From IMG/VR virus record IMGVR_UViG_2693429557_000012: 6,465 nt of DNA. One strand, 5' to 3'. Position numbers and translations under genes: made by a program. The stretch comes from a virus. Its lineage: Duplodnaviria > Heunggongvirae > Uroviricota > Caudoviricetes. Shown piece by piece: positions 3,013 to 6,337 of the stretch; position 1 is the stretch's first letter; each line of letters starts with the position of its first letter. The notes under the pieces are model-generated. The model had not been told where the DNA came from. It saw nothing but the letters and a program-made list of their open reading frames with translations, and ran no database searches.

Positions 3013-3576
3013 ATGAATCGCACGTCTATTGAAAAACTCCCGTCACTTACGCATAACCATCTTCCTGTCATGACAACAGAGCTGCTGGCTGATTTGTACG
3101 GAACAGAGCGCCAGCGTTTGACAAACAATTTCAATCGAAACAAAGAACGGTTTATAGAAGGTAAACATTTTTTCCTGATAGAAGGTGATGCGTTACGAGA
3201 GTTGAAGAACGAAAACTCTTTAAGAGTTTCTGTGAAAATTGCCCGTAACGTTCGCTCCCTCATCCTCTGGACAGAACGTGGCGCAGCCCGTCACGCCAAA
3301 ATGCTCGAAACCGATCAGGCGTGGGAAGTGTTCGAAAAACTGGAAGACTGTTATTTCAACCAGAAACAGCCACCAGCGGCACAAAACACATCTATCGAAA
3401 ATGATGGATGCGCATTACTGAGCCACTTCGATAAACACGGTCAGGTTGAGTTCACGGAAAAGGTACCCGCCGATGCGATGGTATGTACTCTGGAACGGTT
3501 TAAATTTTATCTGGAGCAACACGGGTGGATCGTTGCCCGTAAAGAGCAACTGGTGGAGCGGTTGATGCGGTTTTAA
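3013..3576 (+). CDS. ORF6N-like (KilA-N-related) phage protein, often annotated as antirepressor/regulatory protein
   Basis: LPVMTTELLADLYGTERQRLTNNFNRNKERFIEGKHFFLIEGDALRELK...LWTERGAARHAKMLETDQAWEVFEKL matches the ORF6N domain pattern as recalled. Start ATG 3013 has AAGGA 7 nt upstream. The ORF-track extension back to 2815 has no support and would overlap the promoter and leader hairpin. Confidence 0.65.
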   Translation: MNRTSIEKLPSLTHNHLPVMTTELLADLYGTERQRLTNNFNRNKERFIEGKHFFLIEGDALRELKNENSLRVSVKIARNVRSLILWTERGAARHAKMLETDQAWEVFEKLEDCYFNQKQPPAAQNTSIENDGCALLSHFDKHGQVEFTEKVPADAMVCTLERFKFYLEQHGWIVARKEQLVERLMRF

Positions 3577-3651
3577 AAATTTTTTCCGAAAACTTTACGA
3601 TCGTAAAAAGTTGAATATCCTGTTAAGAGTGGTTACTACGCCACACAGCTT

Positions 3652-3678
3652 AAACCCGCCGATGAGCGGGTTTTTTTA
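3652..3678 (+). terminator. Intrinsic terminator downstream of the ORF6N-like gene
   Basis: AAACCCGC/GCGGGTTT stem with 6 nt loop, followed by a run of seven T residues. Confidence 0.65.
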
Positions 3679-3726
3679 TACCTGAAAAACGGCACAGGAC
3701 GTTAAACGTGCTGGTGGTCAGATGAG

Positions 3727-3755
3727 TTTGCAGATGTGATGACATATGGTTATTA
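3727..3755 (+). promoter_or_regulatory. Candidate promoter for the tRNA array
   Basis: TTTGCA (3727-3732), 17 bp spacer, TTATTA (3750-3755), placing the start about 3 nt before tRNA-Ile. Confidence 0.3.
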
Positions 3756-3765
3756 TTCTGCCTCC

Positions 3766-3842
3766 GGCCCTTTAGCTCAGTTGGTCAGAGCGAGCGACTC
3801 ATAATCGCCAGGTCGCTGGTTCAAGTCCAGCAAGGGCCACCA
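3766..3842 (+). tRNA. ileZ: tRNA-Ile (anticodon CAU, ileX/ileZ-like, reads AUA)
   Basis: Hand-folded cloverleaf: acceptor GGCCCTT/AAGGGCC, anticodon loop CTCATAA, T arm GCTGG-TTCAAGT-CCAGC, encoded CCA. Near-identical to E. coli ileX as recalled. C4-G69 and C5-G68 fit Ile2 rather than Met identity. Confidence 0.85.
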
Positions 3843-3843
3843 A

Positions 3844-3920
3844 CCACCACTAGCTCATCCGGATAGAGCATCAACCTTCTAAGTTGACGGTGCGAGGTTC
3901 GAGTCCTCGGTGGTGGGCCA
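3844..3920 (+). tRNA. argN: tRNA-Arg (anticodon UCU, reads AGA)
   Basis: Cloverleaf with anticodon loop CTTCTAA, T arm CGAGG-TTCGAGT-CCTCG, acceptor CCACCAC/GTGGTGG with an unusual C1:G72 pair, encoded CCA. Begins 1 nt after the previous tRNA. Confidence 0.8.
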
Positions 3921-3922
3921 GC

Positions 3923-3998
3923 GCCGACTTAGCTCAGCAGGCAGAGCAACTGACTTGTAATCAGTAGGTCACCAGTTCGATTCCGGTAGTCGGCACCA
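3923..3998 (+). tRNA. tRNA-Thr (anticodon UGU, reads ACA)
   Basis: Acceptor GCCGACT/AGTCGGC, anticodon stem ACTGA/TCAGT with loop CTTGTAA, encoded CCA, ending GGCACCA as in Thr tRNAs. One A-C mismatch in the T stem. Confidence 0.75.
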
Positions 3999-4001
3999 TA
4001 T

Positions 4002-4076
4002 GCGGGCATCGTATAATGGCTATTACCTCAGCCTTCCAAGCTGATGATGCGGGTTCGATTCCCGCTGCCCGCTCCA
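4002..4076 (+). tRNA. glyT: tRNA-Gly (anticodon UCC, glyT-like, reads GGA)
   Basis: GCGGGCATCGTATAATGGCTATTACCTCAGCCTTCCAAGCTGATGATGCGGGTTCGATTCCCGCTGCCCGCTCCA matches my recollection of E. coli glyT; anticodon loop CTTCCAA. Confidence 0.85.
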
Positions 4077-4256
4077 GTCAGAGTCTTTCAGTCTGCGATG
4101 ATGGGAAATCCCGGAGTGACTGAAAGACGTTTAAGTTATGAATGATCGCCTTTTTTTGCAAAATTGCTGTGCAGAAATACTAACCTTCGGGCGTGCGATC
4201 ATTCATAAGCACTCTGCTTTTATTCCGATTAACTGTGGGTGGTTTGTTGGATAGAG

Positions 4257-4817
4257 TGTGAGGTGTACTGGCAATAGCGGACACTACCATTTGTTCTTTT
4301 TTTAAGCAGCCATCTGATGATATTTTTCCCTGAAGGCTGCCGGGGAGATATTCCCCAGACGAGAGTGACGACGCTGACGATTGTAGAAAATCTCAATGTA
4401 TTCCCGTATTACTGAGATGGCTTCATCCCGGTTATTAAAACGATAGTGGCTCAGGCTCTCATTTTTCAGCGTTCCCCAGAAGCTTTCCATCGGAGCGTTG
4501 TCGTAACAGTTACCTTTACGCGACATTGATGTTTTCAGACCAGACTGCTCCTGTATGACCCGGTAATCGTATGCGCAGTACTGTGAACCTCGATCAGAGT
4601 GGTGGATTAGCCCGGCAGGTGGGCGCTGGCTCCTGAGCGCCATAAACAGGGCTTTACCTGTCAGCTCTTTTGTCATGCGCTCTCCCATGGCGTAGCCGAC
4701 AATTTCGCACGTATAAACATCTTTGATGCCAGCGAGGTACAACCATCCCTCCTGTGTGGCAACATACGTCAGGTCCGCCACCCAGACCTGATTTGGTGCT
4801 GTAGGAGCGAACGTCAT
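4257..4817 (-). mobile_element. 5'-truncated IS3-family insertion sequence (3' ~560 bp only: C-terminal OrfB plus terminal inverted repeat)
   Basis: Encodes the DDE integrase core of an IS3-family OrfB (VADLTY, HHSDRGSQY, NAPMESFWGTLK). Beyond the stop at 4302, 4257-4290 (TGTGAGGTGTACTGGCAATAGCGGACAC) resembles IS3-group terminal repeats that begin with TG. OrfA, the OrfB N-terminus and the other end are absent. Confidence 0.75.
4302..4817 (-). pseudogene. IS3-family transposase OrfB, C-terminal catalytic fragment (N-terminally truncated)
   Basis: 171 aa ORF carrying the DDE triad but missing roughly the first 110 residues and the upstream orfA. The apparent ATG at 4815-4817 falls in the junction microhomology and is probably not a genuine start. 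Confidence 0.75.
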
Positions 4818-5224
4818 TTTTCCTGATAGAAGGTGATGCGTTACGAGAGTTGAAGAACGAAAACTCTTTAAGAGTTTCTGTGAAAATTGCCCGTAACGTT
4901 CGCTCCCTCATCCTCTGGACAGAACGTGGCGCAGCCCGTCACGCCAAAATGCTCGAAACCGATCAGGCGTGGGAAGTGTTCGAAAAACTGGAAGACTGTT
5001 ATTTCAACCAGAAACAGCCACCAGCGGCACAAAACACATCTATCGAAAATGATGGATGCGCATTACTGAGCCACTTCGATAAACACGGTCAGGTTGAGTT
5101 CACGGAAAAGGTACCCGCCGATGCGATGGTATGTACTCTGGAACGGTTTAAATTTTATCTGGAGCAACACGGGTGGATCGTTGCCCGTAAAGAGCAACTG
5201 GTGGAGCGGTTGATGCGGTTTTAA
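4817..5224 (+). pseudogene. 5'-truncated second copy of the ORF6N-like gene (C-terminal ~135 codons, no native start or promoter)
   Basis: In-frame identical copy of 3169-3576. The ORF track calls it from a TTG at 4850; its N-terminal ORF6N half is missing. Confidence 0.7.
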
Positions 5225-5299
5225 AAATTTTTTCCGAAAACTTTACGATCGTAAAAAGTTGAATATCCTGTTAAGAGTGGTTACTACGCCACACAGCTT

Positions 5300-5326
5300 A
5301 AACCCGCCGATGAGCGGGTTTTTTTA
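5300..5326 (+). terminator. Intrinsic terminator (repeat copy of 3652-3678)
   Basis: Identical duplicated sequence: AAACCCGC/GCGGGTTT stem plus seven T residues. Confidence 0.6.
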
Positions 5327-5413
5327 TACCTGAAAAACGGCACAGGACGTTAAACGTGCTGGTGGTCAGATGAGTTTGCAGATGTGATGACATATGGTTA
5401 TTATTCTGCCTCC

Positions 5414-5490
5414 GGCCCTTTAGCTCAGTTGGTCAGAGCGAGCGACTCATAATCGCCAGGTCGCTGGTTCAAGTCCAGCAAGGGCCACCA
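5414..5490 (+). tRNA. ileZ: tRNA-Ile (anticodon CAU), second copy
   Basis: Identical to 3766-3842 within the direct repeat. Confidence 0.85.
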
Positions 5491-5491
5491 A

Positions 5492-5568
5492 CCACCACTA
5501 GCTCATCCGGATAGAGCATCAACCTTCTAAGTTGACGGTGCGAGGTTCGAGTCCTCGGTGGTGGGCCA
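5492..5568 (+). tRNA. argN: tRNA-Arg (anticodon UCU), second copy
   Basis: Identical to 3844-3920 within the direct repeat. Confidence 0.8.
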
Positions 5569-5570
5569 GC

Positions 5571-5646
5571 GCCGACTTAGCTCAGCAGGCAGAGCAACTG
5601 ACTTGTAATCAGTAGGTCACCAGTTCGATTCCGGTAGTCGGCACCA
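5571..5646 (+). tRNA. tRNA-Thr (anticodon UGU), second copy
   Basis: Identical to 3923-3998 within the direct repeat. Confidence 0.75.
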
Positions 5647-5649
5647 TAT

Positions 5650-5724
5650 GCGGGCATCGTATAATGGCTATTACCTCAGCCTTCCAAGCTGATGATGCGG
5701 GTTCGATTCCCGCTGCCCGCTCCA
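5650..5724 (+). tRNA. glyT: tRNA-Gly (anticodon UCC), second copy
   Basis: Identical to 4002-4076 within the direct repeat. Confidence 0.85.
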
Positions 5725-6337
5725 GCGAGATTTGAGACGAAGGTTGTTATTTGCACTGACACAATATTGTGTGGGAATGTCTGACTCCTTACCATCTCCT
5801 GTTCTGTGATGTTGTTTTGTTGCAGTTCCAGTGCTCTTTTTTCAGCACCAGAATGGTGCATTGTCGGTCAGGTTACGTAGTGAACCTCTGGCAGGGGACT
5901 GATAATGCATCATTCTGGTGTTGTAAATATCTCTTCGGACAACTTACAAAATATTCTAAGCAAACCCCGGGAACACACTCTTAACTGCCTTGGCTGGCGG
6001 TTTTTTGTACAGTGCTCGGTATGTGTGAGCTGGAAATCAGATTTTGCATGGACTGGAATCATGCTGTTATTTAGGGGCGAAGAACTGGCTTTTTCTTCCG
6101 CCTTCTCACCAGTAACGATTAGAAAAATAATGAAATGCCCCCCTCCGGGGAGGAGGACCGTAGAAAAAAGGACCCGCCAGCAAAAACATTGGGGATGAAC
6201 AGCTTTCGCTACTCAGATTGCTGGCGGGTAAAGTTCCTCATGAATTAAGAATGCTACGCGATCTTTTTTAATGGAAATGAAAATTATTGTCAATTAGTCG
6301 TGCGTGTTTTTTCATACAATATTGGTAAAGGTGATTC

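Follow-up and report, generated by a model that had tools for sequence, protein, structure and literature searches.

The window, which denotes the whole stretch of 6465 bp that was analysed, is identical in extent to the complete contig CXDR01000202.1 (L019) of the draft assembly GCA_001260135.1. Judging from protein names and sequence identity, its source is almost certainly Shigella sonnei. On the plus strand, positions 3013-3576 hold an intact gene of a prophage remnant, here called B. The exact 187-aa product of this gene is recorded in 3937 blocks of the collection, with a precomputed Pfam match to the ORF6N domain (PF10543), and its homologue is named 'ORF6N domain-containing protein' in RefSeq. 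The gene is followed on the same strand by an array of four tRNA genes at 3766-4076 (CAT, Arg-TCT, Thr-TGT and Gly-TCC), and the array is met again at 5414-5724, also on the plus strand; both copies were recognized by ARAGORN and by Rfam tRNA matches. The tRNA with the CAT anticodon is annotated as tRNA-Ile (Ile2-type) in RefSeq relatives, and the other three as Arg, Thr and Gly. At the right end (6405-6465, plus strand) lies the start of a class II holin gene that is cut by the contig end; it corresponds to the holin call at 11745 in the finished-chromosome locus L006, and the class II annotation derives from E. coli VL7S7 (L003). The order Ile(CAT)-Arg(TCT)-Thr(TGT)-Gly(TCC) between a Q antiterminator and a class II holin gene is that of the tRNA arrays of lambdoid and Stx prophages, and the same array recurs in numerous E. 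coli prophages and phage records. If the array of the window is counted once, nothing about it is unusual.

Self-comparison of the window reveals that 909 bp at 3169-4077 and 4817-5725 are 100% identical at a fixed offset of 1648, with no other long identical run at this offset, a result far above chance. Each copy, on the plus strand, comprises the 3' part of the ORF6N gene, the intergenic region and the four tRNA genes. The preliminary description of this DNA had reported both the identity of the two segments and their anatomy, with an ORF6N 3' half, a tRNA array and differing flanks behind each copy, and these observations are borne out. Within the repeat, a plus-strand segment of 412 bp at 3666-4077, designated R', is in addition 100% identical to positions 1966-2377 of a sister S. 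sonnei draft (L021), where it lies directly downstream of the genes DUF1367-YbcO-DUF1133 of a DUF1133-type prophage, here called A. R' is a repeat that short reads cannot resolve. A homology search with the DUF1133 protein, aimed at prophage A, returned only a partial representative.

The extra sequence that separates the two copies (4078-4815) consists of two parts, a spacer X and the first 557 bp of an insertion sequence. Spacer X (4078-4258, plus strand) is the tRNA-to-holin spacer of a lambdoid prophage of type A, cut here by IS600. It is 100% identical to positions 8793-8973 of E. coli VL40 (L001), where it runs from tRNA-Gly towards the holin gene, and in locus L017 it stands behind the tRNA array of a DUF1133-type prophage that matches the left flank of prophage A in the sister draft L021 at 96% identity. 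Behind the second copy lies spacer Y (5726-6404, plus strand), the native tRNA-to-holin spacer of prophage B, which is contiguous with ORF6N and the tRNAs in the finished chromosomes L005-L014 and in E. coli VL7S7. The extra sequence is explained by a second genomic copy of R' with different flanks, as found in L021, L017 and L001.

The insertion sequence occupies 4259-4815 on the minus strand and begins at the boundary to X with the terminal inverted repeat of the orfB end (TGAGGTGTAC). Counted again from the orfB end, it shares 99.8% identity with roughly the first 557 bp of a complete IS600 in L001, and the matching element is annotated in RefSeq as 'IS3-like element IS600 family transposase'. 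The earlier reading of an IS3-family element that is truncated and without its orfA end is correct as to the family and can be specified as IS600, but what looks like a truncation is an assembly block ending in the interior of the element. A complete IS600, with orfA and orfB joined by a programmed frameshift, both inverted repeats and a target-site duplication, is absent from the contig, where the element is represented by the 3' 557 bp alone (159-171 codons of orfB), its remainder falling beyond the gap described below. Compared with an intact IS600, 557 of about 1264 bp are written, and the truncation is no evidence of a deleted element. The insertion itself is real, since the X/IS600 boundary (4258/4259) is free of N and identical in L019 and L021. 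It resembles other IS600 insertions in Shigella prophage remnants, in that the terminal inverted repeat (TGAGGT...) abuts X and the same insertion site is shared by two S. sonnei drafts. The 159-aa orfB fragment, used as a lead, pointed solely to unrelated IS600 truncations in finished chromosomes, not one of which adjoins X. In FDAARGOS_943, one IS600 lies in X at a distance of 56 bp (L002) and a second beyond the holin gene (L017); both occupy different sites and were rejected as the same insertion.

The interpretation of the locus depends on a single base. Over all 6465 positions, the window and the deposited record of CXDR01000202.1 differ only at 4816, which is A in the window and N in the public record. 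This undetermined base sits exactly between the IS600 interior, ending at 4815, and the second repeat copy, beginning at 4817, and it follows that the apparent junction is an unclosed scaffold gap. Copy 2 had been described as joined directly to the interior of orfB through a 7 nt microhomology (CAT plus a T-run). The direct joint is removed by the N that separates the two blocks in the deposited contig, and the microhomology disappears with it, the A of CAT being the replaced N; the detail of six T versus five T is as described. Furthermore, recombination would have left a contiguous sequenced novel joint with short parental identity at the breakpoint. Neither is found: the intact IS600 continues as ...GAACGTC/TGGTTCAGC, and comparison of the parental sequences (...AACGTC/TGGTTC for IS600 and ...GTAAAC/ATTTTTT for ORF6N) leaves at most a single C in common.

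Searches for the joint outside the contig are in line with this reading. The junction sequence is absent from every fetched locus except the contig itself, and the two open reading frames that would span it, a 171-aa truncated orfB and a 124-aa truncated ORF6N, are absent from roughly 15 billion proteins. Apart from the contig of the window itself, a shorter form of the latter (114 aa) is present only in S. boydii 5216-82, where it reflects a different event, with a complete IS3-family element at the window-equivalent positions 3075-3080. A 91-aa form is found mostly in contigs of an S. sonnei sublineage that carries IS600 inside ORF6N at about 3254. Neither the whole structure nor the X/IS600 site is present in 5,426 complete E. 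coli genomes and 50,697 phage records, and exact-pattern scans for both junctions gave nothing in the GTDB species representatives and JGI metagenomes, two collections in which S. sonnei is not expected. Two further candidates had been considered from the window as written. A tandem duplication was ruled out, as the second unit does not contain X-IS600 and continues into Y, and normal IS600 transposition or an adjacent deletion was rejected on the grounds that the IS terminus is missing on the side of the joint; both rejections are moot because of the N at 4816.

Comparison with finished chromosomes places both sides of the gap on one locus. Positions 1-4077 of the window are 100% identical to 6989-11065 in L006-L014, and positions 4817-6465 match 10157-11805 of the same loci at 99.8%, with three mismatches, all in Y. 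From these coordinates, the two blocks overlap by 909 bp on one locus, which in the finished chromosomes has the order Q-ORF6N-tRNAs-spacer Y-holin and is present in a single copy (L006, and likewise L007-L014). The sister draft L021 shows the pattern of the window at other coordinates and contains three copies of R': a single N at 2378 separates the end of tRNA-Gly from the IS600 interior, and a single N at 5440 separates the IS600 interior from the ORF6N interior (window-equivalent 3304). The same kind of joint therefore recurs with different breakpoints in an assembly of the same kind, and N runs are present in the same region in L022 and L015. The start of the contig lies inside an IS end, as assembly from short reads would lead one to expect.

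Two blocks of a short-read draft (1-4815 and 4817-6465) are scaffolded in the window, with the unclosed gap between them written as one N, and the apparent duplication is very probably an assembly artefact and not a rearrangement of the genome. Misassembly across near-identical prophages, which had been offered earlier as a fallback explanation, is supported by the mapping of both sides of the N to one single-copy locus, by the origin of the X-IS600 piece, whose place is behind this tRNA array in a prophage of another type, and by the single-N joins elsewhere in L021. The source genome would contain at least two lambdoid prophage remnants sharing an identical R' (at least 412 bp, 3666-4077), namely prophage B, with the putative order Q - ORF6N - tRNAs - spacer Y - holin, and prophage A, with the putative order DUF1133-type antiterminator - tRNAs - spacer X - IS600. 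Short reads would fail to bridge R'. The scaffolder may then have linked the sequences on the left and right of it, and iterative gap-filling would have extended both edges inward: the left edge through R' and out along the wrong branch, the prophage A exit, into X and 557 bp of the multicopy IS600, and the right edge back through R' into the ORF6N gene up to 3169. As the two extensions no longer overlapped, the gap would never have been closed and one N would have been left. Such opposed extensions would write the same 909 bp of prophage B twice, block 2 re-reading the prophage B locus from the start of copy 2, with the piece of prophage A between them. The exact software steps, and which of the branches was the wrong one, we infer.

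This scenario is consistent with the behavior of a published high-throughput pipeline (Velvet, SSPACE and 120x GapFiller) used on 299 S. sonnei genomes. In this pipeline, contigs linked by read pairs receive N gaps at their joins, and the authors describe the tools as greedy and prone to false joins (PMC5320598). GapFiller extends both edges of a gap and closes it only with an overlap of at least 10 nt and a fitting size, and the gaps that remain open lie mostly in repeats (PMC3446322). The window shares with such drafts one N between two blocks that overlap on the same reference locus, breakpoints in or beside a two-copy repeat and a multicopy IS, and recurrence in a sister assembly. It differs in that the residual gap is one N and not an N run, which is easily overlooked, and in that a base was substituted for it in the window; use of this pipeline for GCA_001260135.1 is presumed.

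The alternative that survives best, although it is unlikely, is a real duplication whose joint was not sequenced, with ORF6N-tRNAs-X-IS600...[gap]...ORF6N 3' part-tRNAs-Y-holin on one molecule. It would have arisen by recombination between prophages A and B, either IS600-mediated or illegitimate, and the N would hide the remainder of IS600 and the sequence up to 3169. The scaffolder did set the two blocks adjacent in that order and orientation, the X/IS600 insertion is real and N-free in two assemblies, and Shigella genomes are IS-rich and often rearrange. Moreover, the presence of IS600 inside ORF6N at about 3254, in the same orientation, in an S. sonnei sublineage (L020) makes IS600-IS600 recombination between A and B conceivable in such strains. 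In the contig studied here, however, ORF6N runs through 3254 without interruption in either block, and this route therefore does not apply to it. The structure is also single-copy in all finished chromosomes examined, and short-insert read pairs would probably not span a gap with 700 bp or more of a multicopy IS. Finally, the different breakpoints and the three R' copies of the sister draft point to software behavior and not to inheritance. If the duplication were real, the dosage of the Ile2, Arg-UCU, Thr-UGU and Gly-UCC tRNAs would be doubled in one S. sonnei lineage.

It is more doubtful still that no duplication exists but a real homologous exchange took place at the tRNA array, so that the left arm of B is truly joined to X-IS600 in a B/A recombinant, such as an inversion between prophages could produce, and block 2 was then wrongly extended. 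The run ORF6N 3' part-tRNAs-X-IS600 contains no N in either L019 or L021, and the combination of the left part of B with X could really exist in some strains. A 412-bp identical repeat is sufficient for RecA-dependent exchange. Against this, finished chromosomes invariably have Y and the holin gene behind full-length ORF6N, and greedy extension through a two-copy repeat would give the same N-free chimera in both drafts.

Least credible of all is the reading preferred in the preliminary description, an illegitimate, microhomology-mediated fusion of IS600 orfB to ORF6N between prophages, sequenced through and leaving a truncated IS and a doubled dosage of rare-codon tRNAs: taken literally, the window does read ...GAACGTC-A-TTTTTCCTG... 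with no gap, and its duplicated segment flanking a foreign insert at a non-homologous joint superficially resembles MMBIR-type or microhomology-mediated duplications, but unlike these it has no sequenced joint, the parents share at most one base there, and neither the joint nor the ORFs it would create are on record elsewhere. The doubled tRNA dosage loses its support together with the joint on which it rested.

More generally, a single-N scaffold gap in a draft assembly can pass for a joint made by illegitimate recombination, for a truncated mobile element or for a segmental duplication, above all if the N has been swapped for a base before the sequence is read, and odd joints in short contigs should first be compared with the deposited record for Ns. 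The duplication is most likely not a real feature and of little biological importance; with the array counted once, the locus is an unremarkable lambdoid prophage remnant in Shigella, riddled with IS elements and carrying the usual tRNAs between Q and the lysis genes.

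The 909 bp of positions 3169-4077 and 4817-5725 are identical at a fixed offset of 1648, as the preliminary description held, and no other long run occurs at that offset. The anatomy had also been read correctly: each copy contains the 3′ part of an ORF6N gene (complete at 3013-3576, with Pfam PF10543 for the exact product), a 189-bp intergenic stretch and four tRNA genes (CAT, which is tRNA-Ile in the RefSeq annotation of relatives, Arg-TCT, Thr-TGT and Gly-TCC). The copies enclose a unique 181-bp sequence (spacer X, 4078-4258) and a 557-bp piece of the IS3-family element IS600 on the minus strand (4259-4815, 99.8% identity), with the similarity opening exactly at the orfB-side inverted repeat, TGAGGTGTAC. 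Copy 2 is followed by a spacer differing from X (Y, 5726-6404) and then by the start only of a class II holin gene.

Exact-protein look-up showed that the window covers the entire length of a public contig, CXDR01000202.1 (6465 bp), from the draft assembly GCA_001260135.1. Upon base-by-base comparison, a single difference is observed over the 6465 positions: at 4816, the sole base separating the last IS600 base (4815) from the start of copy 2 (4817), the record has N where the window has A. Consequently, the supposed joint is an unclosed scaffold gap, and the direct fusion of the orfB interior to the ORF6N interior described previously does not stand. The difference between five and six Ts at this point is a mere consequence of where the second block begins.

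The same 187-aa ORF6N protein, whose source records carry the organism name Shigella sonnei or Shigella, is found in finished chromosomes of 4.8-5.0 Mb (L005-L014), all with one gene order: DnaB, an 85-aa ORF, RusA, Q, ORF6N, tRNAs, Y, holin and lysozyme. In L006-L014, positions 6989-11065 are 100% identical to window 1-4077, and positions 10157-11805 match window 4817-6465 with three mismatches, each within Y. The two blocks of the window (1-4815 and 4817-6465) thus share 909 bp of one single-copy locus, prophage remnant B. A position-by-position check against six finished chromosomes places the Y differences at 5904, 5907 and 6013 (A/G, G/T and T/C), and the remaining compared loci likewise show about three mismatches to the window in Y. 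Two of the three belong to an imperfect inverted repeat (5839-5869/5897-5927), where they lie in the right arm and lift its complementarity from 24/31 to 26/31; the differences could stem from an assembly error or from conversion of one arm by the other, or be genuine variation. The contig starts inside one end (…TGGAAATATAGGGGCAAATCCA) of an IS3-family element (window 1-33), presumably IS2; a start of this kind is a typical boundary for short-read contigs. This element lies directly upstream in the finished chromosomes and truncates the prophage replication module. L005 (CP104423.1) has an additional IS600 in the prophage DnaB-like helicase gene (window-equivalent ~369-372), with the alignment overlapping by 4 bp at the insertion point.

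The only window sequence without a counterpart in B is the 738 bp of X and the IS600 piece (4078-4815). In E. coli VL40, another type of prophage has a spacer 100% identical to X between the same tRNA array and the holin gene; in FDAARGOS_943, X again lies 3′ of the tRNA array, in a DUF1367-YbcO-DUF1133 prophage. In a sister S. sonnei draft (FUAS01000246.1), a DUF1133-type left flank, 96% identical to that of FDAARGOS_943, passes without N into 412 bp that are 100% identical to window 3666-4077. The species thus has a second prophage remnant, A, which has in common with B a repeat (R′) that is identical over at least 412 bp; the continuation of A into X is seen in relatives. The X/IS600 boundary (4258/4259) is the same and free of N in CXDR01000202.1 and the sister draft, so this IS600 insertion is real. 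FDAARGOS_943, labelled E. coli, carries numerous copies of IS600, ISSfl3 and ISSso6, one IS600 lying in spacer X 56 bp off the window's site, and gene 4 of its tRNA array is annotated as a 71-nt tRNA-Val, not tRNA-Gly.

In the sister draft, R′ occurs three times, with two single-N joins, at 2378 (tRNA-Gly end/N/IS600 interior) and at 5440 (IS600 interior, ~972 bp/N/ORF6N interior, window-equivalent 3304); L022 and L015 also have N runs within this region. N-marked breakpoints that shift between drafts, always at R′ or IS600, are typical of software output; an inherited rearrangement would keep them. A published high-throughput pipeline, run on 299 S. sonnei genomes (mean 405 contigs each), comprised Velvet assembly, SSPACE scaffolding, in which Ns are written where contigs are linked by read pairs, and 120 iterations of GapFiller; its authors regard both latter programs as greedy, with false joins possible (PMC5320598). 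GapFiller grows both gap edges by k-mer overlap, requires for closure an overlap of at least 10 nt between the extensions and a filled size matching the estimate, and leaves gaps mainly at repeats (PMC3446322). The observed picture fits this type of behaviour; GCA_001260135.1 may have been produced by such a pipeline. The left edge would have been grown through R′, out via the prophage A exit into X and then multicopy IS600, and the right edge backwards across R′ to position 3169 in ORF6N; one N would have been left because the extensions no longer overlapped. The 909-bp identity is real as text, but the genome very probably has no such duplication around a truncated IS.

Among the alternatives, a real exchange between B and A at R′, joining the left part of B to X, stays a minor rival because this combination is free of N in two drafts; the duplication would be artefactual even so. 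A real duplication concealed behind the gap is improbable. Searches gave no independent support for a real joint: the whole structure was present in none of the complete E. coli genomes or phage records searched, nor was the junction pattern, with N as wildcard, found in GTDB representatives or JGI metagenomes, where S. sonnei is not expected. The literal joint in a CAT plus T-run microhomology can hardly be right, since the A of CAT is the N and intact IS600 diverges there (...GAACGTC|TGGTTCAGC), the parental sequences have at most C alone in common, and the ORFs that it would create are absent among ~15 billion proteins. Apart from the window's contig, S. boydii 5216-82 alone has the 114-aa form of the truncated ORF6N; there the gene is interrupted at a different position, ~3078 (window-equivalent 3075-3080), by a complete IS3-family element. 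The ORF6N gene is a repeated IS target, and many S. sonnei drafts (L020, L023-L029) have IS600 in it at ~3254 (window-equivalent ~3254-3261), in N-free contigs beginning with the IS600 orfA end.

Immediately 5′ of the ORF6N gene, four Rfam matches above the gathering score are observed: c4-a1b1 targets (2560-2612), isrK (2573-2649), C4 antisense RNA (2675-2758) and sRNA-Xcc1 (2892-2975). Judged from these matches, 2560-2975 resembles an antisense-RNA module of the P1/P7 immI or Gifsy isrK type that controls an antirepressor-like gene. As a methodological lesson, when a short contig shows a strange joint, its deposited record should be inspected for Ns. If the repeat is counted a single time, what is left is an unremarkable lambdoid prophage remnant, eroded by IS elements and arranged in the usual Q-tRNA-lysis order.
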